From an uncultured Gammaproteobacteria bacterium (GTDB taxonomy: Bacteria > Patescibacteriota > Microgenomatia > Levybacterales > UBA12049): DNA of 64,000 nucleotides. The stretch covers positions 82,098-146,097 of the forward strand of contig CAZCYO010000004.1 of assembly GCA_964503265.1 (NCBI GenBank), given 5' to 3'. The translations under genes were made by a program, and so were the position numbers. The notes beneath the pieces were generated by a model. The model saw only the letters and a program-made list of their open reading frames with translations, had not been told where the DNA came from and made no database searches. This document shows positions 13,120-30,663 of the stretch, one piece after another. How positions within the stretch are numbered: the first letter of the stretch is position 1; each line of letters opens with the position of its first letter.

Positions 13120-13917
13120 ATGGGGAAAATTAGAGTAAAATCATTTGGAGATACAGAAGCTGAAGCTAAAGACGCAAAGCTCACACAAAAACGTGCTGAT
13201 GCTAAGGCTGCTAAAAAACTAGAACAAACTGCAGGAGAAGCTCCTGAAGCTATGTCTCACGTTGTTGAAGAAAGTGCAACGAAAGAAAAAAAACAAAAAT
13301 ATGCAGTTACCTCTAAAAACCAGAAACACAAATCACCAAAATACCAAGACGCAGCTAAGCTAGTTGAAAAAAGTAAAACATATAAAGTAAAAGACGCACT
13401 CGAACTCCTCCCAAAACTTACTGTCGCAACATTTGATGAAACTGTTGAATTACACATTAATACCACAGCTACAGGAATCGTTGGGAATATGGTACTTCCT
13501 CATGGAACAGGAAAACAAACCAAAGTAGCTATCGCAACAGATGAAATCATCGCTGAAATTGAAAAAGGTATTATCAATTTTGACGTTTTAATCGCTGAAC
13601 CAATGATGATGGCAAAACTCGCTAAAGTAGCTCGAATTTTAGGTCCTCGTGGACTCATGCCAAATCCTAAAAATGGTACTGTTACTCCAAAACCAGAAGA
13701 AGCTGCAAAGAAATTTGAAGGTGGACAAATTAACTTTAAAACAGAATCGAAGTTTCCACTTCTCCACTTAACAGTTGGAAAAGTTTCTTTCGGTGCAGAT
13801 AAACTCCAGGATAACATCAAAGTTGCAATTCAAAGTGTCCAAACAAAAAATATTAAAAATGTTACTCTCAAATCAACTATGTCCCCAGGCATGAAAATTG
13901 ATACCGCTTCTCTCTAA
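13120..13917 (+). CDS. rplA: 50S ribosomal protein L1 (with ~65-aa Lys/Ala-rich N-terminal extension)
   Basis: L1 core (…FDETVELHINT…LPHGTGK…LGPRGLMPNPKNGTV…GKVSFG…). A GGAG-type RBS precedes ATG 13120. An alternative internal start near 13252 is possible. Confidence 0.8.
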   Translation: MGKIRVKSFGDTEAEAKDAKLTQKRADAKAAKKLEQTAGEAPEAMSHVVEESATKEKKQKYAVTSKNQKHKSPKYQDAAKLVEKSKTYKVKDALELLPKLTVATFDETVELHINTTATGIVGNMVLPHGTGKQTKVAIATDEIIAEIEKGIINFDVLIAEPMMMAKLAKVARILGPRGLMPNPKNGTVTPKPEEAAKKFEGGQINFKTESKFPLLHLTVGKVSFGADKLQDNIKVAIQSVQTKNIKNVTLKSTMSPGMKIDTASL

Positions 13918-13965: not shown

Positions 13966-14937
13966 ATGCGATTTCTTAGTAAATTTCATCCTAAGTTTTT
14001 ATCTCTCATCGTAACTGGTTTTGTGGTTTTAGGACTACCACTTATGGTATTCGTGTCCAGTCAAAAACAAGATAATAGACAACACGCATCAGCTGCGTGT
14101 GTTCCCACTCCTGCTACTCTAACAGCATATACTCCTACTACTTCCTGTGGAACAGATCTCTTTCGATATGTAAAATTTGGTTGTTCAAATGGATACAGTG
14201 GTAGTTTAGGCAGTGATACAAGCTGCAAATCAACAGCAGAATGGAAAAACTATGCATATGAAGAATGTACTAAACAAACTGTCTGTGTTGAACCTACACC
14301 AATAAATTATTGTCCGACTGTAACTGCGAGTACGATATTCGGTGGAAAATCATGCGGAACGAATTTATATGATAGTGTTTCCTATACCTGTAGTGACGGG
14401 TATAAAGGCTATTTTGGAGGCGATACGAGTTGCAAAACCTGGGAGACATGGATTGGGTATGCTCAAAAAGATTGTGCGAGTAGAACAGTATGTAGCTACC
14501 CAACTGCAATGCCAACTCCAATTTCAACGACAATGCCATACCCGACCTCCCTGCCAACCACGATGCCATACCCTACGACTGTCATGACACCAAAACCTAC
14601 ACTCGCTATGCTAACGGGCACATGGATGAAGGCTACACCGTATTCAGCGAAAATCACAGTAAAAGCTGGTGTTTATACGCCTATAAAAGCATTTACTATC
14701 CAGAACGTTTCGGGAAAACCTTCGTTCTGGGCAACAGCCTCGTTAAGTTTGGATAAGCCAGAAAGTTCTCGATTTATTATTATTGATGGTGCTTCACTTT
14801 TTATAAGTACAACTGGTGTTCCAGTAAATATTAAAGCGACAAGCTCTGCAACAGCTGGAGTCTACAGTGGATTTGTAAGTATAAAAAATAGCTACGAACA
14901 GATAACTCTCCCCGTTGAAGTGATAGTGACAAAATAA
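13966..14937 (+). CDS. Secreted protein with TM anchor, KQDNRQHAS motif and two tandem Cys-rich ~75-aa repeats
   Basis: N-terminal TM plus SQKQDNRQHASAA. The tandem repeats are CGTDLFRYVKFGCSNGYSGSLGSDTSCKS…C…C and CGTNLYDSVSYTCSDGYKGYFGGDTSCKT…C…C. A Pro/Thr linker follows. Confidence 0.45.
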   Translation: MRFLSKFHPKFLSLIVTGFVVLGLPLMVFVSSQKQDNRQHASAACVPTPATLTAYTPTTSCGTDLFRYVKFGCSNGYSGSLGSDTSCKSTAEWKNYAYEECTKQTVCVEPTPINYCPTVTASTIFGGKSCGTNLYDSVSYTCSDGYKGYFGGDTSCKTWETWIGYAQKDCASRTVCSYPTAMPTPISTTMPYPTSLPTTMPYPTTVMTPKPTLAMLTGTWMKATPYSAKITVKAGVYTPIKAFTIQNVSGKPSFWATASLSLDKPESSRFIIIDGASLFISTTGVPVNIKATSSATAGVYSGFVSIKNSYEQITLPVEVIVTK

Positions 14938-15029
14938 TAATTCTCCTTTTAAACTTGTACTGATGTTTACTTAATGGGAAATAAGCCACCATCATTGACT
15001 CTTTAAGCCTAATTCTTTACGCTAGAGAT

Positions 15030-17093
15030 ATGTACGTATTAATGAGTAATAAAAGACGATTATTAACCATAATAGTAATTATATTCCTCATTCTGTCACT
15101 CCCAACAATTATGTATGTCATTAGCACCCGACAAGATATCCGCCAACGAGCTTCGGAGAACGTTTCACTTAATCCAGCATTTGGAAAAACCTGTGAAGTG
15201 AATGATATTGACACATTAATATCTTGTTTTGGGAGATTATATTATGGAAACGACCAAGTGGACGTCATTAAGTTCACGGCTATGGTTAACTGTAATGAAT
15301 TAGATAATTGCGAGGTGTCAATACCAAGTATCCGTCGCCCAGTGCTCATATATGGAGATCCGGGAACAGAAGTAGGGATAAAAAGCACAGGTACCAATAG
15401 CTTACACGTTTTTAGTATCACAAATTCTGATAATGTTGATATTAAAAATATTCAGATAATCGGAAATGGTGAGCCCTGTCCAGAAAATAGATCCTGTTCC
15501 AACGGGTTGACCATCGGAGATTCAACTAATATACGAATCGATAATGTCACGGTCAGAAATGCTAAAAGAGGAATAGGTGTGTATTATTCGGACAAGGTTA
15601 CTATTACGAATAGTACTATCACGAATAATGATCAAGAAGGGATTCATGTCCATTCAGCAACAGATACTAATTTGCTCACTCCAACTTCTGGAACAGTATT
15701 TATTGAAAATAATATCATTTCTGATAACAGGAGATATGGCATATTTATTGAAGGCATCTACCCGAGCATTTCTCCAAGTCACATTTCAGGAAACATATTA
15801 GATCATAACCATACAAAAACATATCCAGGATATTGTATATCAGATACACTAACCGCATGTGGGGGTGGCCAAATTACGATCAAAAACTATACTTCGAATA
15901 TCGTTATCGAGAATAACATCATTCGAAATGGAAGTCTTACAACAAGTATTCTCGATACAGGTGTTTCAGGAATTGAATTAGGAAATCGTACTATTCAAAA
16001 TATACAAATACGTTCAAATGATATTCACGATAATAGCTTTTGGGGAATCAGCTCCTATGAAAATACCGACAACATGACAAATAATACAATCCAAGATAAT
16101 CGTATTTATAATAATGCTAAAGGTACACTCTTACCCTCATTCTCCCAACAAGCCAATAACTGTACGACATCCTCATGCCCGGCACCAACTATCACTGGGA
16201 CTATCTCGCCAACTACAAATTTCACTTCCATTAACGCTACTGGTCAATGTCAAACAACCATTTCCTGGTCAACAAACGCTTCTACAGCAAGTATTTATAG
16301 AGAAGAAAATCTTCTTTCAAATACAACAACAGGCTCTCAATTATTGTCAACAATTCCACCAGGAAAAACACGCTTTGATCTCCTATCGGGAACCATTGAT
16401 AAATCTCGGCTCGCAAGTACTGTCGTATACTGTTTTGCAAGCCCTTCAGTAGTAGCTTCAAATGCGCCTTCAAATTCACCAACTCAGGTACCACTACCAA
16501 CAGTCACGCCGACAGTAACACAACCTCTCCCAACACCTACGCTTATTCAAACACTCACACCTGCTAAAGGAACATTTTCACTTTCTGTCATCCTTCATGG
16601 TATTGGAAATAACGGAGACAATACAAATAAAACAGGAGGAAACCTTACACCTCGAACTACAACTCGAACTGTTTCTGTTGAGTTAACTAATACAGAAGGA
16701 TCTGTACTTCCAGCGTTTCCTTCACAAATCACCTACCAATCAGCTACTCAAAAGTTCGTTGGGGAAGCGAGAATTCCTCAGACTATTCCTAATGGTACAT
16801 ATTCCATACGAATAAAAAGCTCTGGATATCTATCTTCACGCATATCAGGATTCGTTACTATCACCGATAATACAGTGCTCACGTTACCAGTGACTACACT
16901 AACCGTAGGAGACACATTTGTGGATAATAAACTCGACATTTTGGATTTTAATATCATTATGACATGCTGGATCACTTCAGAAGTCTGCTCTCCAGAACAA
17001 AAAATACTTTCAGATCTAGACGATGATGGAAATGTCACCGCTATAGATGACAACCTTTTTATTCGAGAAATAACGATTCAACGTGGTTATTAA
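15030..17093 (+). CDS. Surface protein: TM anchor + RQDIRQRAS motif, right-handed parallel beta-helix (PbH1) repeats, dockerin-like C-terminus
   Basis: Repeated NxxIxNNxI(x)G beta-helix rungs (…VDIKNIQIIGNG…IRIDNVTVRNAKRGIGV…ITNSTITNNDQEGIHV…). The C-terminus, LDILDFNII…DLDDDGNVTAIDDNLFIRE, resembles two dockerin Ca-binding repeats. Confidence 0.55.
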   Translation: MYVLMSNKRRLLTIIVIIFLILSLPTIMYVISTRQDIRQRASENVSLNPAFGKTCEVNDIDTLISCFGRLYYGNDQVDVIKFTAMVNCNELDNCEVSIPSIRRPVLIYGDPGTEVGIKSTGTNSLHVFSITNSDNVDIKNIQIIGNGEPCPENRSCSNGLTIGDSTNIRIDNVTVRNAKRGIGVYYSDKVTITNSTITNNDQEGIHVHSATDTNLLTPTSGTVFIENNIISDNRRYGIFIEGIYPSISPSHISGNILDHNHTKTYPGYCISDTLTACGGGQITIKNYTSNIVIENNIIRNGSLTTSILDTGVSGIELGNRTIQNIQIRSNDIHDNSFWGISSYENTDNMTNNTIQDNRIYNNAKGTLLPSFSQQANNCTTSSCPAPTITGTISPTTNFTSINATGQCQTTISWSTNASTASIYREENLLSNTTTGSQLLSTIPPGKTRFDLLSGTIDKSRLASTVVYCFASPSVVASNAPSNSPTQVPLPTVTPTVTQPLPTPTLIQTLTPAKGTFSLSVILHGIGNNGDNTNKTGGNLTPRTTTRTVSVELTNTEGSVLPAFPSQITYQSATQKFVGEARIPQTIPNGTYSIRIKSSGYLSSRISGFVTITDNTVLTLPVTTLTVGDTFVDNKLDILDFNIIMTCWITSEVCSPEQKILSDLDDDGNVTAIDDNLFIREITIQRGY

Positions 17094-17108
17094 CATGTTT
17101 ATGCTGGT

Positions 17109-20100
17109 GTGATATACTCCACGCATAAACTTATGGGGCTTAAGAATATTTTAGTACGTGCCTTTGCTTTCGTGCTTCTAACACTGGGTATCGTTACTGC
17201 TGCCGCAACTCCTGCACACGCAGCACCTCCTCAAGACTTTCAGACACAGCTTCTTGTTGGTTCAGGATTATCTAATACTACCGGGTTTGGAATCGCACCT
17301 GATGGGAGAATTTTTATCTTACAGAGAACAGGAGAAGTAAAAGTCTATAAAAATGGCGCCCTCCTGCCTCAACCCTTTACTACCTTCTCAACCGTGATCA
17401 CTGGAGATCGAGGACTCATAGGGATCGCATTTGATCCAGACTTCTTAACCAATCACTATGTGTATTTTTATTTGACTGGGTCTGATCAATATAACCGAGT
17501 TATCAGACTCGACGCACGAAATGATACAGCAGTTGGTGATCAAATCATTATCTTCCAAACATCAACACCTTCTGAACTTCTTCACGTCGGAGGAACAATC
17601 CAGTTTGGTCCTGATGGAAAGTTATATATCGCAGTCGGCGACAATGGCTATGGCCCAAATGCGCAAGATCTAGGCAATCCTCATGGGAAAATTCTTAGAA
17701 TTAATAAAGATGGAAGTACACCAGGAGACAATCCATTCGTGAATATAGAGGGTGTCGACCCCCAAATTTACGCATATGGACTGAGAAATCCCTTCAGGTT
17801 TCAATTCGATGAAGTTAGCGGCAGAATGTATGAGGGAGATGTCGGAGCTGCAGACTGGGAAGAAATAAATACCATTACTCCGGGTGGAAATTATGGGTGG
17901 CCAGCAGCTGAGGGAAATTGCACAGATTGTCCATATAGTAATCCTATTTTTACCTATAACCATGCAAACCAAAGTTCATCAATAACAGGTGGCCCTGTCT
18001 ATCACAAATCCCTTTTCCCTTCAGAATACCAAAATAATCTCTTTTTTGGCGACTATGCTCGAGGATTTATAAGAAGATTGCAATTTGACGACTCTGGAAA
18101 CGTTCTTGGAGATTATGACTTTGACATGAATGCGGGAAGTGTCGTAGATTTAAAAGTCGGAAACGATGGAGGATTATATTATATAACCTATTTCCCATCT
18201 CGTCTCTATAAAATTACATACTCGACAGGGAACCATTCGCCTATTCCCAATGCAGATGTCGATACTATGAAAGGAATAAGTCCCCTAACTACTCACTTCA
18301 CGAGTAGTGGGACATATGACCCAGATAACGACCCACTCTCCTATTTCTGGAATTTTGGTGATGGAACGAGCAGTTCTGAGGCAAATCCTACAAAAATATA
18401 CACAAAAAACGGTAACTACATAGTCACACTAACTGTAAGAGATAGTAATAATTTATCTAATCAATCTATTCCACTTGTTATTCAGGTTGGACTACCACCA
18501 GCAGTTATTATTGGGAGCCCCAAAGAAGGAGCTACATATCATGCAGGAGACACCATAGCATATACAGCATTTGCAAGTGATGGTGCAGGATTTGACCTTG
18601 GCGATGAAAGCATCTCAACTCAGGTACTTCTTCATCATGATACTCACGCTCATCCTTTCTATGGACCAATAACAGGAAGATCTCATGAATTTACTATCCC
18701 TATAAATGGTGAGCCGTCAGCGAACACTTGGTATGAGATTATTATCACAGCAACTGATGCAAACGGTCTTACAAACACAAAATCTGTCACTATTTTTCCT
18801 ATTAAATCAACCTTCCATTTTACGACCGTTCCAGCCGGAATTTCTCTTAAAATTGACGGCCAGCCATTTGCAACTCCTAAAAACATTCAGGGTGTTTCAG
18901 GTTACCAGCGTGAAATAGAAGCATATTCCCAAGACACAAATGGCCACTCTTACCAATTTAGCCATTGGTCAAATAATGGACCTGCCAGACAAACAATCAC
19001 AACAACTGATCAAGATACAAATTTTATTGCGTACTTTACAGACATAGGTTCAATCGATACTCCAGCCAGTAACCTCCAAGCAGCAGTCCAAGCAAACAAC
19101 GTCACTCTTTCATGGAACCAAAGTAGTGGAATATATATGAATCTTGATGCATCAGATAGTGATCATATTCAAGTGTATACAAATGCTGATTATACAGGAA
19201 CAAACGTTCTTGATGGTGGTGTGGGTGGTGGCATAACATCATGGACAATCCCAATTAATAATTCTGGTACATATAATTCTCTTCAGCCTGGAAGAACATA
19301 TTACGCTCGTGTGTATAGCTGGAATGCACCGTGTAATTGTGCCAATGGGACGACTACATCATTCACCACTTCAGGAACTGCAACAAATGGAGACAAGCCA
19401 CCAACCAATCTTTCTATTACTGGACAAACAAATCAAATAGTCCTTAATTGGTCACCAAGTACTGGAATATATACCAATCGTGATGGTAGTGACCATGATC
19501 ATATTCAGGTCTACTCTAATCCAAACTTTACGGGGACAAACGTGCTCGATGGTGGTGTCGGTGGTGGCATAACATCATGGTCTATCCCAATTAATACCAC
19601 GGGCAGTTATAACTCTGTTCAGCCTGGCAAAACATACTATGCACATATTTACAGCTTTAATGCACCGTGTAATTGTAGTAATGACACAAGAGGTAGCTTT
19701 ACTGTTCCTCAAGCAACTGGAGGGACTGGAGAAAAACCTGCAACGAACCTACAAGTAGCAGTTCAAGAATCAAGCGTTATCCTTTCATGGAACCAAAGTA
19801 GTGGAATATATATGAATCGTGATGCCTCAGATAGTGATCATATTCAGGTGTATACGAACCCTGATTATACAGGAACGAAAGTTCTTGATGGTGGTGTGGG
19901 TGGTGGAAATACTTCATGGACTATTCCTATTAACGATTCAGGTTCATATAATTCTGTTCAACGTGGTAAGACATACTATGCTCGTGTGTATAGCTGGAAC
20001 GCCAGTTGTAACTGCAGCGATGGAACAACGACGAGCTTTACTGTGACTGGAACTACTAATGATCATGGAGCGAGTAATCTCCAAGCTCTTAGCTCAACCA

Positions 20101-20381
20101 GTCAAGTCACTCTTTCCTGGTTACAAAGTTCAGGGATATACATGAATCGTGACGCCTCAGATAGTGATCATATTCAAGTGTATACGAACCCTGATTATAC
20201 AGGAACGAAAGTTCTTGATGGTGGTGTGGGTGGTGGAAATACTTCATGGACTATCCCTATTACTAACTCAGGCGTATATAATTCACTAAATTCTGGAACC
20301 ACCTACTATGCTCGCGTTTATAGCTGGAATGCACCATGCAACTGTAGTACGGGCACTGCAATTAGCTTCATAACCCCATAG
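17109..20381 (+). CDS. Secreted multi-domain protein: PQQ-type soluble sugar dehydrogenase-like beta-propeller + PKD domain + four FN3-like tandem repeats
   Basis: Signal peptide (…PAHA/AP). The glucose/sorbosone dehydrogenase family motif is HVGGTIQFGPDGKLYIAVGDNG. The PKD motif is FWNFGDGTSS. There are four ~110-aa repeats (…LSWNQSSGIYMNRDASDSDHIQVY…LDGGVGGG…YYARVYSWNAPCNCS…). Confidence 0.6.
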   Translation: MIYSTHKLMGLKNILVRAFAFVLLTLGIVTAAATPAHAAPPQDFQTQLLVGSGLSNTTGFGIAPDGRIFILQRTGEVKVYKNGALLPQPFTTFSTVITGDRGLIGIAFDPDFLTNHYVYFYLTGSDQYNRVIRLDARNDTAVGDQIIIFQTSTPSELLHVGGTIQFGPDGKLYIAVGDNGYGPNAQDLGNPHGKILRINKDGSTPGDNPFVNIEGVDPQIYAYGLRNPFRFQFDEVSGRMYEGDVGAADWEEINTITPGGNYGWPAAEGNCTDCPYSNPIFTYNHANQSSSITGGPVYHKSLFPSEYQNNLFFGDYARGFIRRLQFDDSGNVLGDYDFDMNAGSVVDLKVGNDGGLYYITYFPSRLYKITYSTGNHSPIPNADVDTMKGISPLTTHFTSSGTYDPDNDPLSYFWNFGDGTSSSEANPTKIYTKNGNYIVTLTVRDSNNLSNQSIPLVIQVGLPPAVIIGSPKEGATYHAGDTIAYTAFASDGAGFDLGDESISTQVLLHHDTHAHPFYGPITGRSHEFTIPINGEPSANTWYEIIITATDANGLTNTKSVTIFPIKSTFHFTTVPAGISLKIDGQPFATPKNIQGVSGYQREIEAYSQDTNGHSYQFSHWSNNGPARQTITTTDQDTNFIAYFTDIGSIDTPASNLQAAVQANNVTLSWNQSSGIYMNLDASDSDHIQVYTNADYTGTNVLDGGVGGGITSWTIPINNSGTYNSLQPGRTYYARVYSWNAPCNCANGTTTSFTTSGTATNGDKPPTNLSITGQTNQIVLNWSPSTGIYTNRDGSDHDHIQVYSNPNFTGTNVLDGGVGGGITSWSIPINTTGSYNSVQPGKTYYAHIYSFNAPCNCSNDTRGSFTVPQATGGTGEKPATNLQVAVQESSVILSWNQSSGIYMNRDASDSDHIQVYTNPDYTGTKVLDGGVGGGNTSWTIPINDSGSYNSVQRGKTYYARVYSWNASCNCSDGTTTSFTVTGTTNDHGASNLQALSSTSQVTLSWLQSSGIYMNRDASDSDHIQVYTNPDYTGTKVLDGGVGGGNTSWTIPITNSGVYNSLNSGTTYYARVYSWNAPCNCSTGTAISFITP
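19064..20378 (+). repeat. Four near-identical ~330-bp tandem coding repeats (FN3-like modules)
   Basis: Long identical DNA stretches recur, e.g. caagtgtatacgaaccctgattatacaggaacgaaagttcttgatggtggtgtgggtggtggaaatacttcatggactat at ~19841 and ~20171. Confidence 0.7.
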
Positions 20382-20503
20382 GAGATACCTTTTCTCTTCA
20401 CATAGCTAACAGATAGCAAAGAGAAGAAGGTATACAACTCTTTATATGCATTATTGCTTCTTCTCTTGACATTTTAATTTGGCTTTCTCTATGCTATAAA
20501 GAG

Positions 20504-23257
20504 ATGAATTTTATTGTTGAAAGATTAAGCCAATTACTAAGATCAGTTACAAATAAAAAATCACTGACGATTCTTTCTGTCGCACTTGTTCTCATCGCAC
20601 TTCCTCTAACAGTCTACATAGGCCAACAACGACAAGATATCAGACAGCGAGCTTCTGGTGGACCACTTGGATATGCACCAGCTGGTACATGTAGCGATCA
20701 GTCATTTTCAGATCTCACTACAGCTCAAGGCACGGTGACAGATCTTGCACTGGCTGCATCTTGTCTGAATCAATCAGTCTATAACTATTGTGTCGTTCGT
20801 GGATTTGGAGATAATACCTTCCGACCAAATGATAACCTCACCCGAGCAGAATTTGTGGCCTTTATCGTGAGATATCATGGAAATATATTTCCGGCAGGAC
20901 ATCCTCAGCGCTGGGATCTTATGACAACAGCTGAAATAGATAGTCTTCCCGTATTTCCAAATAAAATCACGAATGCAACAACAGGCAAGGAACAATTTCG
21001 CCTCTTAGACATCCCTTCTAGCTACCCGCTTGCACGAGAAATCTATACATCACAGAAATATGGATTTATTAAAGGCTATCAGGATGGCACCTTTCAACCA
21101 AGTGTTACTTGGAATTTTGGCTTTCATGGAATAACCCGAAATGATCAAGGCATTGATCCTAATTATAATGACTCATTTAATAATCCCTATAATTTCGCAG
21201 CTGAGTCCGGTCAAATAAAGCGTGGAGAATTTATAAGTCAGCTTTACCAATACGGGAAAGACCCAGTTCGCGCAATAAACGGACAAATCCAATTAGCAGC
21301 ATGTTTCCAGCCGACAGCTGTACCACCGACAGCGACATCAGTTCCTGTCACACCAACCAATCCTCCAACATCAAGCGGTGGAACAGTAACACAAAATGCT
21401 AGTTGCTCTAATACACTATCTGACGTACCCACATCACTCAACCAAGCCATGGGATGCTACCATAACACGACAGCAAGTGGCTACTGCATCGTTCGAGGAA
21501 ACGGCACGACACTTGGTCCAAATGATAACTTATCCAGAGCTGAGTATGTAGCATTTATCGTTAGATACCATAACCAAGTTTTCCCTGTCGGAAATGCCAA
21601 TCACTGGGACCTCATCACTAGAGCTGAATACGATGCACTTGATGGAACAACAGGTAAAAAGAAATTTCCAGACGTAAATCCAGACACATACTCACTCTGG
21701 CAAGAAATTTATACATCACAGAAATATGGATTTGTTGTCGGACAGCTCGATGGTAACTTCTATCCAAACGATCTCTGGACATTTGGTTTCCATGGAATTA
21801 CCAGAAACGATCAGTGGCCAGCTGGAACAGGATATGATTTTAATACGGCTGGGAATTCTATTAGTAGAGGAACATTTATCCAGCAGCTTTTTGATTATGG
21901 TAAAACCAAAGCACAACTCACCGCCTGCTTCCCAGTCTCTACCACCTATATGATTTCAGGTGTCGTTAGTGGAGTAACCGCAGCGACAAATATGGTATGG
22001 AATGTTCCAAATGGTGCATTACCTCCAGTTCCATTCCAAACAGATGCATCAGGAAATTATGCAATTCGAGATCTGAGCGCTGGTACATATTTAGTATCTG
22101 TTGTCTCACCAAGTGGAAAGACAGCAACCCCTCTATCGTATACAGTTAAAGTGGGAGATGGCTGTACTGTTACACCAGCTGGTGAGAGTTCCTGTGGAGC
22201 AGATGGTAATGCAAGTAAGGTAAACTTCTCTGTTACCCAAACACCTCCAGTGGTAACACTCACCGCTCCAGCGAACTTAAGACCTTCTGGATCAATTACC
22301 GAAGGTCAAACTACAGTACAGTGGGATGCCGTTATTGGTGCAGATTCTTATGAATATTCACTTTTGGATCAGACGCTTAACACTAATTTACCAGGTTGTG
22401 TAGTAAAAGGTGGTACAAATAACGATACTGGATGCGTACTCACATTCCCAGCCACCCAACAGAGTTATAATTTTCTGGCGGGACATACGTATCGCATAGG
22501 TGTAAGCGCCATAACGACTTCTTCATCAGGTGTTATCGCACGTGGGCCTGAATCTTCAGTAATAATTACTGCCGCAGCAGCCGTCAGTCAAACACCATCA
22601 ACATCTCCTACGCAAGCTCGTATCAACCTTGAGGTAATCTTTAGACAACATGGTATTGGACTAGCAGCAGATAATGCTAACCCAAATGCAACACCATTAG
22701 TAGTTAGTGGAACCATCATGCCGTTCCCAACACCGGTAGACCTCTTTAGAAATAGAGCTGTGACTGTCTACCTTTCGACAGGAACATCTCTTAATGACGG
22801 AACGCCACAGTATGAATATCAAAAAACTGGAACAGCATTGTACTCACCTGATAACAGTGGGTTTTATAAAGGAGTTATTGATCTAGGAACAGATGTTCCA
22901 GCAGGACAATATATTGTGGCAGTAAGAACAAGTAATTCTCTTTCTCAACAGGCTACAGGATTTGTAACAATTACACCTACAAACACCGTGATTGTTAACT
23001 TTCCGGCCCTTGTTTCAGGAAATGTTTATGACTCAACAATCGATAATACTACTCCCACCAACGATAACCAACTCGACATTCTCGATTACAATGCAATTAT
23101 GGATAACTGGCTGAATCCAGATCTATGCACTACCAGTAATAACCAGACTGTTTGTAACACCATTCGAACACGAGCCGACCTCAATGCAGATGGAGTAGTC
23201 GATGTACTTGACTATAATCTCTTTATCCGAGAACTCAGTGTTCAACGAGGAAGATAA
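20504..23257 (+). CDS. Surface protein: TM anchor + QRQDIRQRAS motif, multiple SLH-like modules, Ig-like region, dockerin-like C-terminus
   Basis: SLH-like segments (…VVRGFGDNTFRPNDNLTRAEFVAFIVRYH…; …GFIKGYQDGTFQP…; …CIVRGNGTTLGPNDNLSRAEYVAFIVRYH…; …GFVVGQLDGNFYP…). The C-terminus, LDILDYNAIM…DLNADGVVDVLDYNLFIRE, is dockerin-like. Confidence 0.55.
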   Translation: MNFIVERLSQLLRSVTNKKSLTILSVALVLIALPLTVYIGQQRQDIRQRASGGPLGYAPAGTCSDQSFSDLTTAQGTVTDLALAASCLNQSVYNYCVVRGFGDNTFRPNDNLTRAEFVAFIVRYHGNIFPAGHPQRWDLMTTAEIDSLPVFPNKITNATTGKEQFRLLDIPSSYPLAREIYTSQKYGFIKGYQDGTFQPSVTWNFGFHGITRNDQGIDPNYNDSFNNPYNFAAESGQIKRGEFISQLYQYGKDPVRAINGQIQLAACFQPTAVPPTATSVPVTPTNPPTSSGGTVTQNASCSNTLSDVPTSLNQAMGCYHNTTASGYCIVRGNGTTLGPNDNLSRAEYVAFIVRYHNQVFPVGNANHWDLITRAEYDALDGTTGKKKFPDVNPDTYSLWQEIYTSQKYGFVVGQLDGNFYPNDLWTFGFHGITRNDQWPAGTGYDFNTAGNSISRGTFIQQLFDYGKTKAQLTACFPVSTTYMISGVVSGVTAATNMVWNVPNGALPPVPFQTDASGNYAIRDLSAGTYLVSVVSPSGKTATPLSYTVKVGDGCTVTPAGESSCGADGNASKVNFSVTQTPPVVTLTAPANLRPSGSITEGQTTVQWDAVIGADSYEYSLLDQTLNTNLPGCVVKGGTNNDTGCVLTFPATQQSYNFLAGHTYRIGVSAITTSSSGVIARGPESSVIITAAAAVSQTPSTSPTQARINLEVIFRQHGIGLAADNANPNATPLVVSGTIMPFPTPVDLFRNRAVTVYLSTGTSLNDGTPQYEYQKTGTALYSPDNSGFYKGVIDLGTDVPAGQYIVAVRTSNSLSQQATGFVTITPTNTVIVNFPALVSGNVYDSTIDNTTPTNDNQLDILDYNAIMDNWLNPDLCTTSNNQTVCNTIRTRADLNADGVVDVLDYNLFIRELSVQRGR

Positions 23258-23327
23258 TTGCTGTGCTTGACAAAAAAATCACTCTGTGTTTAAATCTCAA
23301 TTAAGGTTGTACGACCTATAAATTAAA

Positions 23328-26300
23328 ATGAAGCACACAAAGCGGCCAGATAGTCGCTTTTTTTTCAAGCTGTTCAGTAAATATAGTAAAAACTATAATG
23401 AACATGTGATTTGGGAAAATCCGTTTAAAACGCGGAGAATTGTAACGAGACTTTTCCTCCTCTCTCTCCCCGTCCTCCTCTTCACCCTCTATCACGTTTA
23501 CACCCTAGTAACAAATGCAGCAGTCAACACGTCATACGATGTAGTTGTCGTCGGAGGTGGAACAGGTGGAGTGAGTGCGGCTATTCAAGCCGCTCGCCAA
23601 GGTGTTCGAGTCGGCCTGATCGAGTCGACCGACTGGCTAGGCGGACAAGCAGCTGCAGCAGGAGTTTCGAACATGGATGAGGGCGCTAACGAGCGCTCTT
23701 CTGGTATATATAGCGAGTTTGTGAATAGAGTCGCATCAAAATATGGCGGAGCACAGTATATTCATAAATGCTATTTTGGGGGTAATAATATTTGTCCTGA
23801 ACCACACGTCGTGAGACAAGTACTTGAAGAAATGGTCGCTGGTACTGGAAGAATTGATGTTTATTATCGCCACAGCGTGACATCGGTACTCAAGTCAGGA
23901 AATATCGTGACGGGTGTGACAACTCACTCTTCTGTCGATAACGCAAACAATCAGTTTGGAGCAAAAGTTATAATTGATGCGACTGAATATGGTGATCTCC
24001 TTCCAAAAGCTGGTATTGCCTATAGAATCGGCAGTCAAAATTCAGGAAGTATCAATACTGCTGCCTGTATACAAGATATAACCTATACAGCAGTCGTTAA
24101 ACGATATGATGGAGGTATCCCCTCATACCTTCAGATCACCACAGCACCACCTGGATACAACAGTACAATTGAGTCAAGATTCTCAGAGATGGTGACAAGT
24201 AGTGGTGCACGAGATAATGGAAATGCTCCATATTACTGGAGCTGGATTCACCATAATGCATATCGTGGAATGGCAGATTCTACTCGCCCGTCCACTACAG
24301 ATGCTGGATCTGGCGCAGCTTCTATCACAAAAACAGGTATTAACTTCGCCAATGACTATCCAGCTGAAAAGCCATATAACAATACTGCTGGCAATACAAC
24401 ACTTTCAGTTCGGTATATCGAAGATACAGCATATCGTAAACAAGCTGACTGTGATGCTAAATTAAAAACAATTCAATTCATTTACTACATGCAAAAAAGT
24501 GGACAAAACTGGTCAGTAGCTGATGATGAAGGATTTGATACATCATATAATCAATCAGAAAATTCATGTAGTAATATCCCCACAGCGTTTAAAGAAATCG
24601 AAAAGCGCCTCCCAGTTATGCCATATGTTAGGGAATCACGACGGATGATTGGAGTAACGACATATACATCATCACAGCTTCGTGCTCAAAAACAGTCAAA
24701 TCGACTAGACGGAAGTTCTGTTAAAGCGGTAAATTTCTCAAATAGTATCGCTATTGGTGGATACGATGATGACTTACATAACTGTAATGATGCATCGACT
24801 CTAGATAGTAGTATTGATTTGATCTCAGATAAAGGCATGGGCGGTGGGACCTTTCAAATACCTCTTGAAGCACTCATCCCACAAAGTGTCGATGGCTTTA
24901 TCGCAGCTGAAAAAAATATATCCCAATCCCGACTCGTTAATGGAGCGACTCGTCTCCAGCCAATCACAATGCTAACTGGTCAAGCAGCCGGAGCACTCGG
25001 AGCAATCTCTGCACAATCAAATAGACAGCCACGAACAATTAAACCAATTGAAGTACAGCTCGCACTCGCAAATGCAAAAAGCTACCTCGCACTCGCGCAG
25101 TTTAATGATGTTACTCCAGGAAACGCATATTTTGCCGGCGTACAAATAGCATCTTTATATAACGTTTTTTATGGTGATGGATCAGGAAATTTTAACACTT
25201 CAGGAGTACTTACACGTGGAACTGGTGCTATACTCTTAACTCGACTACTCAATATTCCGACTAATGGCACAGAAGATGATGCGATTACTCAAATCAGACT
25301 TCGTGGATATACAACTGCTTCTTCTAATGCCGCATATAATCCCGGAAACACACTCATCAAAGGCGATCTTGCCGTGTTACTTGCTCGCGCTCTTGGGCAA
25401 AGCCCCGGATCAGTAGATGGGGCACTTTCCTCTCTTTCGTCCCTTGGAATTCCTGTTGAATGTACGAATAGTGGCTGTGCTGGGGATTCAGTCACACGTG
25501 GAATATTTGCAAACGCTGCTGCTTATTCACTTAAATACATTCAAAACGGTATCACGCCAACTACCCCAATCCCTCAAGGAAACCCTGCATCAAATCTCCA
25601 AGTAAACACACAGCCAACCCAAGTATCACTGAGTTGGTCTTCAAGTAGTGGAATATATGCAAATACTAATGCATCAGACGGAGACCATATCCAAATTTAT
25701 TCAAACTCGAACTTTACCGGGACTAGGGTATTAGATGGCGGTGTTGGCGATGGCACACAGAGCTGGACAATCCCAGTCAACAATTCTGGTGAATATAATT
25801 CGGTTCAACCAGGCAAAACGTATTATGCTCGAATCTATACCTTTAATGCACCGTGTAATTGTAGTGATGGAGTAATGGGCAGCTTTACTGTTCCAAACGC
25901 ACCCATTATAGGTGAGGTTGCACAACCAGCATCAGACCTAAGTATTTCTGCACAAGCAGCCCAAATCTCACTGACATGGACTGCAAGTAGTGGGAAATAC
26001 ACGAACACTAACGCAAATGATAATGACCATATCCAAGTCTATTCTAATCCCAACTTTACTGGAACAAAAGTTCTTGATGGTGGTGTCGGTGGTGGCACAC
26101 AGAGCTGGACAATCCCAGTCAACAATTCTGGCGCATATAATTCTGTTCAACCGGGCAAAACGTATTATGCTCGGATTTATAGCTTTAATGCTCCCTGTAA
26201 TTGTAGTGACGGAACCACTGGCTCATTTACTGTTCCAGGAAATTCTCCAACAACTGACAAACCAGCATCAAATCTATCAATCAATGCACAAAGTTCACAA

Positions 26301-27245
26301 GTAAGTATATCCTGGTCTCCAAGTACAGGCAGTTATACCAACAGAGATTTCAGCGATAACGATCATATCCAGATTTATTCTAACTCGAACTTTACGGGAA
26401 CGAAAATACTTGATGGCGGTGTGGGTGGAGGTACAACATCATGGAATATTCCAGTGAATACTTCTGGTTCATATAATTCTGTCAAACCAGGCCTAACATA
26501 TTACGCTCGCATCTACAGTTTCAACGCTCCTTGTAACTGTAGTAACGGAACAAATGGCTCCTTTACCGTACCTGGCACAAATGGTGGAAGTGGTGACTCT
26601 CCTGCCACCAATCTTCAAGCAGGAGTACAGTCCTCTCAAGTTACTTTATCCTGGTCACAAAGCAAAGGAGTATATATGAATCGTGATACTTCAGACAGTG
26701 ACCATATCCAAGTCTACTCGAATTCGAATTTTACCGGGACGAAAGTTCTTGATGGTGGTGTCGGTGGTGGCACACAGAGCTGGACAATCCCAGTCAACAA
26801 TTCTGGCGCATATAATTCTGTTCAACCGGGCAAAACGTATTATGCTCGGATTTATAGCTTTAATGCTCCCTGTAATTGTAGTGACGGAACAACGACGAGC
26901 TTTACAGTAAACGGCACAACGAACGATCATGCTGCAAGTAATCTTCAAGCGGCAGTGCAATCGAACCAAGTCGTTTTAAGCTGGGCACAAAGTAGTGGTA
27001 CGTATATGAATCGTGACACATCAGATAGTGATCATATTCAGGTATATACAAATCCTGACTTCAGTGGCACAAAAGTATTAGATGGTGGTGTGGGTGGTGG
27101 AACGCAAAGCTGGTCAATTCCTATTACTAACTCAGGTACATACAATTCACTTAACTCGGGAACGACGTACTACGCTCGGATTTATAGCTTTAATGCTCCT
27201 TGTAACTGCAGTAGTGGTACCACTACAAGCTTCAGGACCCCCTAA
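23328..27245 (+). CDS. Surface FAD-dependent oxidoreductase-domain protein (PF12831-like) fused to five FN3-like tandem repeats
   Basis: N-terminal TM, then the FAD Rossmann motif DVVVVGGGTGGVSAAIQAARQGVRVGLIESTDWLGGQ. Five ~110-aa repeats follow, homologous to those in the 17109 gene. Confidence 0.6.
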   Translation: MKHTKRPDSRFFFKLFSKYSKNYNEHVIWENPFKTRRIVTRLFLLSLPVLLFTLYHVYTLVTNAAVNTSYDVVVVGGGTGGVSAAIQAARQGVRVGLIESTDWLGGQAAAAGVSNMDEGANERSSGIYSEFVNRVASKYGGAQYIHKCYFGGNNICPEPHVVRQVLEEMVAGTGRIDVYYRHSVTSVLKSGNIVTGVTTHSSVDNANNQFGAKVIIDATEYGDLLPKAGIAYRIGSQNSGSINTAACIQDITYTAVVKRYDGGIPSYLQITTAPPGYNSTIESRFSEMVTSSGARDNGNAPYYWSWIHHNAYRGMADSTRPSTTDAGSGAASITKTGINFANDYPAEKPYNNTAGNTTLSVRYIEDTAYRKQADCDAKLKTIQFIYYMQKSGQNWSVADDEGFDTSYNQSENSCSNIPTAFKEIEKRLPVMPYVRESRRMIGVTTYTSSQLRAQKQSNRLDGSSVKAVNFSNSIAIGGYDDDLHNCNDASTLDSSIDLISDKGMGGGTFQIPLEALIPQSVDGFIAAEKNISQSRLVNGATRLQPITMLTGQAAGALGAISAQSNRQPRTIKPIEVQLALANAKSYLALAQFNDVTPGNAYFAGVQIASLYNVFYGDGSGNFNTSGVLTRGTGAILLTRLLNIPTNGTEDDAITQIRLRGYTTASSNAAYNPGNTLIKGDLAVLLARALGQSPGSVDGALSSLSSLGIPVECTNSGCAGDSVTRGIFANAAAYSLKYIQNGITPTTPIPQGNPASNLQVNTQPTQVSLSWSSSSGIYANTNASDGDHIQIYSNSNFTGTRVLDGGVGDGTQSWTIPVNNSGEYNSVQPGKTYYARIYTFNAPCNCSDGVMGSFTVPNAPIIGEVAQPASDLSISAQAAQISLTWTASSGKYTNTNANDNDHIQVYSNPNFTGTKVLDGGVGGGTQSWTIPVNNSGAYNSVQPGKTYYARIYSFNAPCNCSDGTTGSFTVPGNSPTTDKPASNLSINAQSSQVSISWSPSTGSYTNRDFSDNDHIQIYSNSNFTGTKILDGGVGGGTTSWNIPVNTSGSYNSVKPGLTYYARIYSFNAPCNCSNGTNGSFTVPGTNGGSGDSPATNLQAGVQSSQVTLSWSQSKGVYMNRDTSDSDHIQVYSNSNFTGTKVLDGGVGGGTQSWTIPVNNSGAYNSVQPGKTYYARIYSFNAPCNCSDGTTTSFTVNGTTNDHAASNLQAAVQSNQVVLSWAQSSGTYMNRDTSDSDHIQVYTNPDFSGTKVLDGGVGGGTQSWSIPITNSGTYNSLNSGTTYYARIYSFNAPCNCSSGTTTSFRTP
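25582..27242 (+). repeat. Five tandem ~330-bp coding repeats, with a ~150-bp perfect duplicate at ~26071 and ~26741
   Basis: Identical segments ttcttgatggtggtgtcggtggtggcacacagagctggacaatcccagtcaacaattctggcgcatataattctgttcaaccgggcaaaacgtattatgctcggatttatagctttaatgctccctgtaattgtagtgacggaac occur twice. These account for the spurious antisense ORFs in the track. Confidence 0.7.
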
Positions 27246-27260
27246 TAATAGCGCATACTG

Positions 27261-30200
27261 TATGAAAAAACATATTCACCACAGATTTCAATTTGCTCAT
27301 CTTTTGGTAAATTCGTTGTTATCGATAAAAAGGTTCCCCATAAAAAAAAATCACCACTATACACTCTGGGAAAATCCATTTACTTATAAAAAAATTGTTC
27401 GCACACTTTCTCTGTTTATCCTCCCTATACTTATTTTTACTGGCTACCATACATTCACTACACATAGTCTTGCTGATAGTTCTCGTTCATTTGATGTTGT
27501 TGTTGTAGGTGGTGGGACTGGTGGTGTAAGTGCTGCTATCCAAGCAGCTCGTAATGGTGCAAGCGTTGCTATTGTCGAAGAAACGGACTGGATCGGAGGA
27601 CAAATGACTGCTGGTGGAGTCGGAACACTTGATGAAGGAATGGACTGGTCGACAAACCCAGCAACAGGATACGAAAGAAACTCTGGTATCTATAAAGAAT
27701 TTCTTGATCAAATAACGGCAAAATACGGTGGTATCCAAAACTTACATAAATGTTACTATGGAAATTTTGCAATTTGTTTTGAACCAAAAGTAGGTCAAGA
27801 CGTACTTAGTAGTATGCTTTCAAACGCTGGCGTTCAGGTCTTTACTCGTGAGAAAGTAACAAGTGCATTGAAATCTGGAACTACTGTAACCGGGATTGTT
27901 GCACATAATACACTGACCAATAGTACTGATCAATTTAACGCAAAAGTTGTCATCGATGCAACTGAATATGGTGATGTGATTCCACTCACCGGCGCTGCTT
28001 ATCGAGCCGGAAAATCAACTTCAAGCGCACTTGATCTCAACGCCCCAATTCAAGATATAACCTACAAGTTAGTGATGAAACGATATGACACAGGTATTCC
28101 AGCAAACTTAAAGATAACCCAGGAACCACCTAACTATCAAGCCGTTAAACCGCTCTTTGCGGGGTATCTCTCCCAATCAGCACCAATTAGAGACTGGGGT
28201 GATGGAGTCACAAGTCCCTATACAAATCCGCGGTCTTGGGTACAGTACATTGCATATCGCGGAATAGCTGACTCTAGTCATCCATCATCACTCACAGTAG
28301 GTTCATTTGCTGATGCAGCAGCGCTCACAAAATCAGGAATTAATCTCGCCAATGACTATCCAGCAACAGTAAGATTTTTAGAAGATCCAGCGAACCGTAC
28401 ACAAGTCACCTGCGAAGCAAAGTTACGAACGATTCAAATGCTTTATTACATCCAGCAGGAAATGGCACAAAACTGGTCTGTCGACACAGATGAGGGATTC
28501 GATACATCGTATAACCAAACCCAAAACAACTGTGCAAACATCCCCGCAGCCTTTAAAGAAATCGAAAAACGTATGCCACTGATTCCCTACGTTCGAGAAA
28601 GTCGACGAATAATTGGCGTTTCAACGATAACAAGTGCATCGATGAGAGCACAAAAAACAATCAATAGAAGTGATTCTGCAGCAGTAAATGCAGTTGATGA
28701 TCAGACGTCTATCGCACTTGGTGGATATACAACTGACCTTCACTGTATGAACGGTAATCCTTGTACACAAGACCAATTTGATAGCAGTATTGATAGTATT
28801 TCAGATATGCTTCCTGACACACATTCACTCTTTCAAGTTCCACTTGGCGCACTTATTCCACAAACAATTGATGGATTTATCGCAGCTGAGAAGAACATTT
28901 CCCAAGGGCGCATTCCAGCCGGTGCAACAAGACTGCAACCCATAACGATTCTAACAGGACAGGCCGCCGGAGCACTCGCAGCAATTGCTGCTAAATCAAA
29001 TAGACAACCACGAACAGTCACCGCGCTTGAAGTACAGCAAGTATTACTCGCAGCAAATGATCCGCTGACACTCTATAAATTTAACGATGCACCTCAGGGA
29101 GGCGCATTCTGGCAGTCAATTCATATAGCATCACTCTATGGCATTATGACTGGCAATGGTGGGAATTTTAATACTCCAGACACACTCGACCGAGGAACAG
29201 CTGCTATCATTCTGACTCGGTTATTTAACATCACAACAAACGGCACTACAGAAGATGCAATCACTCAGCTTCGAAATAGAGGTATTTCTAAAGCAACGTC
29301 TAATACAGACTTCGCCGCACAAAATCCACTCTTAAAAGGCCAGCTTGCCTTATTTATCGCGAGAGGACTTGGGAAAAATCCTGCTGACGCAACTGCTGCA
29401 TTTACGTGGACTGTCAGTCAAGGTATTTCTGTTGGATGTCAAAGTAGTGCGTGTGAGCAGGAAAGTGTCAGTCGTGGACAAATGGCTGAAACAGTGACAA
29501 CTTCCCTTCCTTTTATCGGCAGTGCTGTCACTCCAGTGACACTTCCTCCACCGACACAAGTACAACCAACTCCCACAACTATCCCGACAACGACAGCAAA
29601 TGATCCAATTGGTAATATGGACGGCATTAGTACAACAGGACAAGTAACTGGTTGGGGTTGTGATGTTGACGCAACAAATCATACAACAGATATTCACTTT
29701 TATGCGGATGGCGGTGGATTCGGAACCTTTCTGGGAGTGATAACGGCTAAGCAAACAGGCGAAGCCGCACTCGCTCCATTTTGTGCAGAATCGACTTCCC
29801 ATCGATTTACATTTGATCTTCCGACAACGGTTAAAGATGGCAAACCACATAACATATATGCTTACGCAATTGGCGTCGGTGGAGGCGCTGCATATAAACT
29901 ACTTTCAAATGCACCAAGATACTTCCAAAACGGTGGAAATGCTATTCCAAGTAACACAAGTCCTCAGTTAACCGGCTGGCAAGACTATGTTACACCGACT
30001 GGCGATTTGGTTGGGTGGGCCTGTGATAAAGCAAATAACAGTTCACCTGTTAGAATTGATATTTATATCGACGGTGGCGGATTTGGTCAGTTCATCGGCT
30101 CAACAACTGCTGATAAACAAGGTGATGACTCTGCTACGCTAGTCGGACTCTGTGGTGGCGGAAATGGAAACAGACGATACATTTTCCCTCTTCCAGATTC

Positions 30201-30663
30201 AATGAGAAATACCGGCAATCATACCATCTACACCTATGCAATTAGCGCTGGAGATGTAACACACATCCTCATTCCAAATTCAGGGCAAGCTTTTTCACTT
30301 GGGAATAAAGATCCATATGGCTTTCCTGACTATGTTGATACCACCGGACGAGCACTCGGGTGGGTTTGTGACCCAGATGATTTTAACCAAGCAGTCACCG
30401 TTCATTTCTACCTCGACGGCCCAGTTGGGCAAGGAACGTTTATCGGGCAAGCTACTGCGAGTATTCCAGATGAGAAAGCAGTTGGCTACTTCTGTGGTGG
30501 AGTAAATGCACATCGTTTCGCTTGGACACTCCCAGAAAGCGCGCTCACTGGATCACATCAACTTTATGTATATGGCAGTAATATTGGAACTGGAAATACA
30601 CAGCTCCTTGGTGGAGGCCCTATTTCAACAACTGATCGTAAGCAAGCCCCAGCGGGACTATAA
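27261..30663 (+). CDS. Surface FAD-dependent oxidoreductase-domain protein (paralogue 2) with three C-terminal ~120-aa GW(G/A/V)CD repeats
   Basis: The start is taken at MKKHIHH… after the upstream stop; the track ORF 27082 overlaps the previous gene. It has the same TM + DVVVVGGGTGGVSAAIQAAR…WIGGQ domain as 23328. The C-terminal repeats are GWGCDVDATNH…FYADGGGFGTF…, GWACDKANNS…IYIDGGGFGQF…, GWVCDPDDFNQ…FYLDGPVGQGTF…. Confidence 0.6.

Follow-up and report, generated by a model that had tools for sequence, protein, structure and literature searches.

We identified two secreted proteins, encoded by open reading frames (ORFs) that we call ORF1 and ORF2, which each end in a dockerin preceded by an immunoglobulin (Ig)-like X-module. 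They lie in a 64-kb stretch of an uncultured Levybacterales genome (contig CAZCYO010000004.1, positions 82,098 to 146,097), and we use "the window" for this whole stretch. The X-module-dockerin dyad (XDoc) belongs to a very large family of C-terminal cassettes in Ca. Levyibacteriota, and related genomes encode cohesins, often in the same operons as the dockerins. Both window proteins have the sequence features of Sec-type secretion together with the C-terminal XDoc tag. We believe that such tags on secreted cargo are likely to bind cohesins and to mount adhesins and enzymes on the cell surface, and that they do not serve the digestion of cellulose.

Both window proteins end in dockerins

A sequence-only reading of this DNA had suggested that the proteins starting at 15030 and 20504 end in dockerin-like modules of type I. 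Both ORFs exist and end as that reading quoted them: the ORF1 tail runs ...NKLDILDFNII.../...DLDDDGNVTAIDDNLFIREITIQRGY and the ORF2 tail ...NQLDILDYNAIM.../...DLNADGVVDVLDYNLFIRELSVQRGR. The span given for the feature, 16900-23257, takes in both dockerins and, between them, an unrelated gene at 17109-20381. In all six frames of the 64 kb, the stringent loop pattern that we searched for, D.[DN].[DN]G.[VIL]..[LIVMATS]D, occurred exactly twice, at 17013-17048 and 23177-23212, which is loop 2 of each tail. Because the pattern is found nowhere else in the window, we consider the tail observation to be real and specific. The type I loop spacing that had been read from these tails holds for loop 2 in both proteins, while loop 1 is only partly canonical. 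In loop 2 the calcium-ligand positions 1, 3, 5 and 12 are canonical in both copies (DLDDDGNVTAID in ORF1 and DLNADGVVDVLD in ORF2), and position 9, which is N or D across the family, is a canonical D in ORF2 and a T in ORF1.

The Pfam model Dockerin_1 (PF00404, 57 positions, curated cut-off 22.9 bits) spans both isolated tails, with 24.5 bits for ORF1 (model positions 2-56) and 24.8 bits for ORF2 (positions 6-56), although taken alone these scores are borderline. At the family level Dockerin_1 matches 32 of 35 tails (best E 1.8e-10), EF-hand_5 matching weakly in two of the 35, and it matches 73 of 92 family representatives (best E 2.4e-12). A profile of the tail family searched against the PDB returned 24 sequences at E <= 1, and the names of 21 of them identify a dockerin or a cellulosomal protein that bears one; the top match is 4fl4_A (3.4e-6), and several alignments cover both segments. 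The remaining three are two serine-protease chains and AaBgIC, and no classical EF-hand or calmodulin-like protein is among the matches at this threshold. Searches of the PDB with single sequences were less productive: the ORF1 tail had no match, and the ORF2 tail matched only at E >= 0.12, with EF-hand proteins and dockerins mixed. NCBIfam has no model for the cassette, and its sole signal was a weak dockerin_GC match (E 0.039). With the model spanning both tails, most of the family matching it and the fold in agreement (see below), both window tails are dockerins, as had been proposed.

The family has the internal symmetry of a dockerin. Two tandem F-hand segments of ~22 residues, joined by a linker, form an in-register internal duplication (GD..DN.LDILDYN and ADL.DDG.V...DYNLFIRE), with the family consensus GD-x-N-x-D-N-x-[LI]-[ND]-[IV]-L-D-Y-N for segment 1 and A-D-[LI]-[ND]-D-D-G-x-V-N-x-x-D-Y-N-L-F-[LI]-R-E for segment 2. 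The linker holds two nearly invariant cysteines (family alignment columns 138 and 148), which likely form a disulfide. An invariant D-Y-N stands right behind the loop in both segments, a symmetry that might permit a dual binding mode.

The dockerin is half of a rigid dyad

Our AlphaFold2 model of the ORF1 cassette, made from an alignment of 31 sequences, is confident (predicted local distance difference test score 94, predicted template modelling score (pTM) 0.88). In it, residues 5-119 form a beta-sandwich that packs onto three helices (128-139, 146-152 and 162-171). The helices have the dockerin three-helix fold, and the Ig-like X-module stands directly N-terminal to them and is packed against them as a single rigid unit. 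The dockerin part is superposed by 2ccl_B at 1.8 Å over 56 residues, and the whole dyad superposes on the XDoc of CipA at 15-16% sequence identity. Because of this architecture, the module is best called an X-module-dockerin dyad and not a free type I dockerin; the type I assignment did not hold, and the closest structural kin is the type II XDoc of CipA. In CipA the dyad reportedly links the scaffoldin to anchoring proteins at the cell surface, through their type II cohesins, and the X-module is said to add stability and to contribute to the interface.

ORF1 and ORF2 share the C-terminal cassette of 180-215 amino acids (aa) at 29% identity (BLASTP E 1e-19). Their N-termini also align (60 aa, E 5e-07), comprising a hydrophobic segment and a RQDIRQRAS motif.

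The sequence-only reading had itself cautioned that the loops could be a generic calcium-binding module, EF-hand-like and stabilising, with no role in docking. We consider this very improbable. Dockerin_1 is a member of the EF-hand clan, the nominal top PDB match of the ORF2 tail is the EF-hand carrier protein 4zcu_A (E 0.12, with dockerins alongside), and EF-hand_5 appears weakly in the two tails mentioned above. The family profile, however, reaches no classical EF-hand protein in the PDB at E <= 1, the entire dyad superposes on the CipA XDoc, and the strict C-terminal modularity, very diverse cargo and operon linkage to cohesins described below are hallmarks of a docking tag.

A large C-terminal cassette family in Ca. 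Levyibacteriota

A first word-index search with one cassette found only one relative, and a profile was required to see the family. With a cassette profile, the word index gave 34 proteins, 16 of them already annotated with PF00404. An exhaustive HMMER scan of 1.84 billion representatives then gave 3,373 clusters (50% identity) at E <= 1e-3 and 617 at E <= 1e-30, with the cassette nearly always forming the last ~180 residues of host proteins of 180-1,457 aa. In a scan of one genome per species we collected 78 loci, mostly from metagenome-assembled genomes labeled Ca. Levyibacteriota or 'Patescibacteria group'; some titles of these records carry evidently generic labels. Several copies per genome are found, for example in the complete 1.14-Mb chromosome OY970292.1. 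The related loci and the window together (1.25 Mb) have 153 cassette-bearing ORFs, and in 146 of them the cassette ends within 3 residues of the C-terminus. The earlier expectation that such modules would be out of place in a small genome is therefore not borne out, since the family is very large and typical of this lineage.

Membership of the window copies does not depend on their own sequences. A profile of 148 homologous cassettes, from which all sequences of the window organism had been removed, finds the ORF1 cassette at E 2.1e-52 and the ORF2 cassette at E 1.8e-32, and the dockerin-only part of that profile finds them at 5.8e-19 and 4.2e-15.

Directly behind the N-terminal hydrophobic segment, many of these proteins carry a short motif, family-wide SQQRQETRSRA[SA]. 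In the window it reads TRQDIRQRAS at 15126-15155, QQRQDIRQRAS at 20624-20656 and QKQDNRQHAS at 14059-14088. Its strict form is present in 36 of the 153 XDoc proteins and is absent from the membrane-anchored stand-alone cohesins described below. The motif is possibly a lineage-specific site of signal-peptide recognition or cleavage.

The cargo of the cassette is very diverse. Among the 92 representatives we found VWA (~10), SdrD_B (10) and CarboxypepD_reg (9) domains in addition to cohesin, and, in one or two cases each, ricin-type lectin, CBM4_9, NPCBM, F5/8 type C, beta-helix/pectate-lyase-like, Big_1, phosphoesterase and GHL15 domains. The window adds a right-handed beta-helix/NosD-like protein (ORF1) and a protein with four SLH-like stretches and a CarboxypepD_reg-like domain (ORF2). 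Judged by these domain matches, the repertoire is one of adhesion and glycan binding and not a cellulase set.

A tag at the extreme C-terminus (146/153) that includes a beta-sandwich and is carried by many unrelated cargo domains could instead be a secretion or sorting signal, recognised and then removed, as with the C-terminal beta-sandwich domain of the type IX secretion system or a sortase signal. We regard this as extremely unlikely: the proteins already have N-terminal Sec-type signals, neither an LPXTG-like motif nor a C-terminal membrane helix follows the cassette, and the linkage to cohesins accounts for the distribution of the tag.

Related genomes encode cohesins alongside the dockerins

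In the related loci we noted a segment that recurs near the N-terminus of XDoc proteins, ...VGD.I.LD[VI]M..PG.N...[YF]D.... Iterating from it with jackhmmer yielded 100 ORFs with a ~160-aa domain in the related loci, with a single copy in each. A profile of this domain matches 6kg8_A/6kgc_A in the PDB (E 2.5e-10, positions 4-155 of 163), followed by the cohesins of ScaB, CipC and SdbA, and it reaches type I, II and III cohesins alike. Pfam Cohesin matches 22 of 29 members (best 5.9e-10). On single proteins in which a cohesin (Coh) is fused to an XDoc, Pfam Cohesin matched only one of seven (E 0.0057), and the family profile and structure were needed. At lower Z (~10), a resemblance of the cohesin structure model to Ig domains of pilins is seen as well. 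In both existence and fold, the domain in these relatives is a cohesin.

The cohesin ORFs fall into two architectures. In 62 of the 100, typically ~400 aa long, the order is signal, Coh, proline-threonine (PT) linker, sometimes extra domains, and XDoc. The other 38 have no XDoc; most are ~200 aa, beginning MSKK..., with one hydrophobic helix and a short spacer ahead of a single cohesin, an arrangement that looks like a membrane anchor, and they lack the QQRQETRSRA-type motif of many XDoc proteins. Thirty of the 38 Coh-only genes follow an XDoc gene of the same strand at a distance of at most 200 nt. A cohesin lies within 10 kb in 46 of 80 XDoc loci, with the recurrent order Coh-XDoc / cargo-XDoc / Coh-XDoc / Coh-only. 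The lineage cohesin profile also finds a cohesin in 30 of 180 family proteins.

Cohesin and dockerin genes co-occur in related genomes such as OZ246394.1 (complete, 1.61 Mb) and OY970292.1 (1.14 Mb). The OZ246394.1 operon encodes a Coh-XDoc protein, a VWA+SdrD_B...XDoc protein, two SdrD_B proteins, a Coh+VWA+SdrD_B+XDoc protein, a further Coh-XDoc protein and a Coh-only protein. We observed this as a conserved Levyibacteriota operon, for example in our loci L084 (10001-20120, OZ246394.1), L047, L013, L022 and L055.

We also considered that cargo-borne and Coh-fused XDocs might be separate specificity types, in the manner of types I and II, but they do not separate by identity (mean 0.452 within a class and 0.437 between classes). 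Cargo XDocs therefore plausibly bind the same cohesins as the Coh-fused ones.

Does the window genome have a partner?

Several observations weigh against cohesin docking by the window proteins. The lineage cohesin profile finds no cohesin in six frames of the 64-kb window (best E 1.2), nor in flanks of 9.1 and 7.3 kb that we recovered from Logan contigs of sample SRR12487046, so that, of the window's own genome, ~80 kb of the 236,902-bp contig with these genes is covered in total; Pfam scans of the window's scanned long ORFs found no cohesin either. On the full proteins Dockerin_1 scores fall below the gathering cut-off, at 19.1 bits (ORF1) and 18.0 bits (ORF2), so the Pfam search that had been suggested succeeds with the isolated tails and falls short with the whole proteins. 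The first calcium loop is degenerate in both copies. In ORF1 (DTFVDNKLDILD) it has D at positions 1, 5, 9 and 12 and F at position 3, and in ORF2, as aligned, it has N1, T3, D5, D9 and D12 with a 10-residue insertion within the loop. The family consensus for this loop is canonical (D1, N3, D5, N/D9, D12), so by the alignment the degeneracy belongs to the window copies and not to the family. ORF1 also carries D for the near-invariant Y169, with D-D-N instead of D-Y-N in segment 2, and ORF2 is without the otherwise invariant first linker cysteine, having two cysteines in its longer linker. The window copies are among the more divergent members, 38-42% identical to any relative, whether cargo or Coh-fused. 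These deviations could reflect an altered specificity or partner, or a relaxed function. Finally, AlphaFold2 of a natural Coh-XDoc protein gave no confident intramolecular docking (pTM 0.56), and we set aside docking of the cohesin on the XDoc of its own chain as a placement that the model does not confidently make.

These points would fit with orphan dockerins, for which the window genome encodes no cohesin and the modules have some other ligand, for example a glycan of the host cell or of the cell itself, the cell wall or S-layer, or a different beta-sandwich. Besides the missing cohesin in ~80 kb around the genes, the divergence of the copies and their degenerate first loop, the neighboring genes at 17109-20381 and 23328-27245 carry 4-5 tandem beta-sandwich repeats. 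Dockerin-like modules reportedly occur in many genomes without cohesins. An essential dockerin-domain protein of a cultivated Saccharibacterium has been proposed to target host glycans (PMC10633639). We nevertheless think orphan dockerins unlikely here, though they deserve more attention than a stabilising module or a sorting signal. The same cassette in relatives is operon-linked to cohesins, and cargo XDocs cannot be told from cohesin-fused ones. Moreover, 34 of the 80 XDoc loci of relatives have no cohesin within 10 kb although those genomes encode cohesins elsewhere, and for that reason the absence of a cohesin near the window genes is uninformative. Of the cohesin-bearing partner that the sequence-only reading had called for, then, the part that stands is the cohesins in dockerin operons of the lineage; no multi-cohesin scaffold was seen, and no cohesin within ~80 kb here.

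A proposed surface-display system

Our preferred explanation remains that the XDoc tags dock onto cohesins. The proteins would be exported by the Sec pathway, with the signal peptide probably cleaved at the conserved ...RQ/SRA motif, and the exported tag would then bind a cohesin non-covalently and in a calcium-dependent manner. Binding would tether the cargo to the cell surface, in the window the beta-helix/NosD-like ORF1 and the SLH-bearing, Ig-rich ORF2. Attachment may be direct, to the membrane-anchored ~200-aa cohesin, or may run through the ~400-aa Coh-XDoc proteins as adaptors. The window genome would be expected to encode a cognate cohesin outside the region that we covered. The purpose would be to present adhesins, glycan-binding proteins and a small number of enzymes at the surface.

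A more ambitious possibility is that Levyibacteriota build a pilus-like surface fibre or network from cohesin-dockerin links, non-covalent throughout and used by these ultra-small episymbionts for attachment to a host, which would be a new kind of appendage. The membrane-anchored ~200-aa cohesin would form the base, the ~400-aa signal-Coh-XDoc proteins would polymerise head to tail with the XDoc of one in the cohesin of the next, and XDoc-tagged adhesins and enzymes (ORF1, ORF2 and the VWA/SdrD_B proteins) would cap or decorate the chain. We consider this a speculative and rather doubtful extension. The operons of relatives do resemble those of Gram-positive sortase-assembled pili by analogy, in that they pair VWA and SdrD_B proteins with a membrane-proximal base. 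In contrast to sortase pili, no sortase or LPXTG was seen in these proteins, and the connectors would be non-covalent cohesin-dockerin pairs.

Comparison with known cohesin-dockerin systems

The closest known relative in structure is the X-module with type II dockerin of Clostridium thermocellum CipA (2B59, 3KCP, 5G5D). Both are C-terminal, with an Ig-like sandwich rigidly packed on a duplicated, three-helix F-hand dockerin, and in relatives of the window organism, as in CipA, the dyad also ends proteins that bear a cohesin. The window XDocs differ in that they are found on cargo proteins without a cohesin and not on a scaffoldin, and the family differs from CipA in its conserved linker cysteine pair and in having D-Y-N in both segments. 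The cohesins of relatives are single and either membrane-helix-anchored or fused to an XDoc, in contrast to the SLH-anchored multi-cohesin proteins of the CipA system; no SLH-anchored cohesin was seen in the related loci. The host differs as well, being a bacterium of the Candidate Phyla Radiation (CPR) with a genome of ~1-1.6 Mb.

With type I dockerins (C. thermocellum Xyn10B, 1OHZ/2CCL; PF00404) the family shares two ~22-residue calcium-binding loop-helix segments and its occurrence on cargo that is catalytic or has a binding function. Loop 2 fits the consensus D-x-[ND]-x-D-G-x-V-x-x-x-D exactly, and the Pfam model is covered end to end. Unlike type I, the X-module is obligatory, loop 1 is degenerate in the window copies, the cargo is not glycoside hydrolase, and there is no Ser-Thr recognition pair, positions 13-14 being an invariant Y-N.

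The system also resembles the non-cellulosomal ones of Clostridium perfringens (NagJ/NanJ cohesins 2O4E, 2VO8, 2W1N) and Archaeoglobus fulgidus (2XDH) in its use for something other than cellulose and in having one cohesin per protein. Those involve a handful of proteins, whereas here a very large set of paralogues bears one type of cassette, present several to many times in a ~1-Mb genome. The obligatory X-module, the membrane-helix-anchored single cohesin and the abundant Coh-XDoc proteins, which could join head to tail, are further differences.

The sequence-only reading had extended its dockerins to a cellulosome-like system, and this we could not uphold. All 100 cohesin ORFs in the 1.25 Mb have a single cohesin and there is none in the window, so no multi-cohesin scaffoldin was seen. 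The dockerin cargo, both among the 92 representatives and in the window, is not mainly plant-cell-wall-degrading: VWA, SdrD_B, lectin, carbohydrate-binding and beta-helix domains are present and cellulases are not. The system is not a cellulosome; it works like a cohesin-dockerin docking system, and structurally the type II XDoc dyad is nearest.

Within the CPR, a precedent is SEML1_0315 of the Saccharibacterium Southlakia epibionticum, a dockerin-domain protein of the envelope that is reported to be essential and is suggested to adhere to the host or to target glycans (Wang et al., Cell 2023, PMC10633639). It is likewise an envelope-associated CPR dockerin, but from another CPR lineage, and neither cohesins nor an XDoc are discussed in that paper. 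Dockerin-type giant proteins have been reported in Omnitrophota (bioRxiv 10.1101/2023.11.21.568195). In the library that it covered, a literature search found nothing on a cohesin-dockerin system in Levybacteria or Microgenomates. The domains are not invisible to annotation pipelines, since the automatic naming at NCBI already calls some members 'cohesin domain-containing protein [Patescibacteria group bacterium]'. The contribution of the window itself is modest, two divergent cargo members, and we believe that the real interest lies in the system at the level of the lineage.

CPR bacteria (Patescibacteria) are thought to live attached to other cells. If our explanation is right, organisms with genomes of only ~1-1.6 Mb give over a considerable part of what they encode to a modular system of plug-in parts for surface display, either borrowed from the cellulosome toolkit or ancestral to it, that serves adhesins and glycan binders. 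With its defined protein pairs and tags, the architecture of the CPR surface and the interaction with hosts would become concretely testable, and the known biological uses of cohesin-dockerin pairs would be widened.

Features of the two proteins and their neighborhood

The features of ORF1 and ORF2 are given in Table 1. A TIGR04247 match to ORF1 (aa 101-365) is weak, at 20.1 bits against a cut-off of 300.

Table 1. Coordinates of the two XDoc-bearing proteins and their parts within the window.
Feature	Position	Strand	Basis
ORF1, 687 aa, secreted cargo protein	15030..17093	+	ORF list; Pfam Beta_helix 1.3e-14, NosD 2.8e-07, Dockerin_1 0.0015
ORF1 domain order: signal/anchor, right-handed beta-helix (NosD-like), PT-rich linker, XDoc cassette	15030..17093	+	
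ORF1 N-terminus, basic and hydrophobic segment, then TRQDIRQRAS (aa 33-42); probably a signal peptide with lineage-typical c-region, putatively cleaved	15030..15155	+	sequence
ORF1 beta-helix/NosD-like cargo domain, ~aa 100-365, boundaries approximate	15327..16124	+	Pfam PF13229, PF05048 at 128-212, 156-357
ORF1 X-module, Ig-like beta-sandwich against dockerin, aa 510-627	16557..16910	+	
ORF1 dockerin, aa 628-687, two-Cys linker, C-terminal helix DDNLFIREI	16911..17090	+	
ORF1 loop 1, DTFVDNKLDILD, F at position 3	16911-16946	+	
ORF1 loop 2, DLDDDGNVTAID, canonical apart from T at position 9	17013-17048	+	motif
ORF2, 917 aa, secreted cargo protein	20504..23257	+	ORF list; Pfam SLH 4.2e-20 (4 stretches), CarboxypepD_reg 2.9e-06, Dockerin_1 0.0034
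ORF2 domain order: signal/anchor, two SLH-like double units, CarboxypepD_reg-like Ig domain, beta-rich region, XDoc cassette	20504..23257	+	
ORF2 N-terminal hydrophobic segment and QQRQDIRQRAS (aa 41-51)	20504..20656	+	sequence; ORF1 alignment; motif scan
ORF2 X-module, aa 701-833	22604..23002	+	ORF1-cassette alignment; independent XDoc profile, positions 4-182 of 183, E 1.8e-32
ORF2 dockerin, aa 834-917, longer two-Cys linker, C-terminal helix DYNLFIREL	23003..23254	+	Pfam Dockerin_1 aa 853-911; family alignment
ORF2 loop 1, broken by 10-aa insertion, NV[YDSTIDNTTP]TNDNQLDILD	23021-23086	+	
ORF2 loop 2, DLNADGVVDVLD, canonical	23177-23212	+	motif match

The two genes belong to a ~20-kb run (13966-33616) of seven genes, all in one direction, that encode secreted or surface proteins. 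It is located between rplA and rplJ; the window contains both secE-nusG-rplK-rplA (to 13917) and rplJ-rplL (from 34840). We noted that the run splits the normally contiguous rplKAJL cluster, with rplA at 13120-13917 and rplJ at 34840-35490. After rplL, a 634-aa ORF without a Pfam match (36142-38046) stands in the place of rpoB.

The first gene of the run, 13966-14937, encodes a secreted protein of 323 aa. Its duplicated Cys-rich units weakly match PF12924, the copper-binding domain of amyloid precursor protein, in three stretches (E 3.7e-07), and are followed by a PT-rich linker and a C-terminal domain that is beta-rich. The genes at 17109-20381 and 23328-27245 encode a glucose/sorbosone dehydrogenase-PKD protein and a secreted flavin adenine dinucleotide (FAD)-oxidoreductase protein. 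Their C-terminal thirds contain four and five tandem ~112-aa repeats, DHIQVY...VLDGGVGGG...TYYARxYSxNAPCNC, with weak Pfam fn3 matches. These Fn3-like repeats are a candidate receptor for XDoc tags. Three large paralogues (23328-27245, 27082-30663 and 30710-33616) each have an N-terminal hydrophobic segment, a PF12831 FAD-dependent oxidoreductase domain (1e-78 to 5e-86) and then SLH-like segments; an extracellular placement of PF12831 flavoproteins would be unusual. The start of the second of them is probably further downstream than 27082, because the ORF list has it sharing 164 nt with the first.

Other observations in the window

ARAGORN found no tRNA gene in the 64 kb, and no Rfam family reaches its gathering threshold there. 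A ~1.55-kb block at 38480-40050 has a GC content of 0.52-0.59 against a background of 0.38-0.40. It contains short overlapping ORFs on both strands, one with a faint sub-threshold Pfam match, and no long ORF; there are no tandem repeats and no Rfam family in the block, apart from a spurious sub-threshold microRNA match at its edge. In its first 791 nt the predicted folding is better than that of shuffled sequences (z -3.8 on the + strand and -5.1 on the - strand, 20 shuffles each), and the block is a candidate for a large structured RNA or a foreign insert. It is flanked by a small ORF on the - strand (38048-38296) that looks DNA-binding, being helix-turn-helix-like by eye.

Further along the window, a 2,809-aa ORF on the - strand (45156-53585) has no Pfam domain above threshold. 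Upstream of it, on the + strand, there is a co-directional cluster of eight genes (54171-61323), mostly without Pfam matches, two members of which weakly match the peptidoglycan-binding domain of WxL-interacting proteins.

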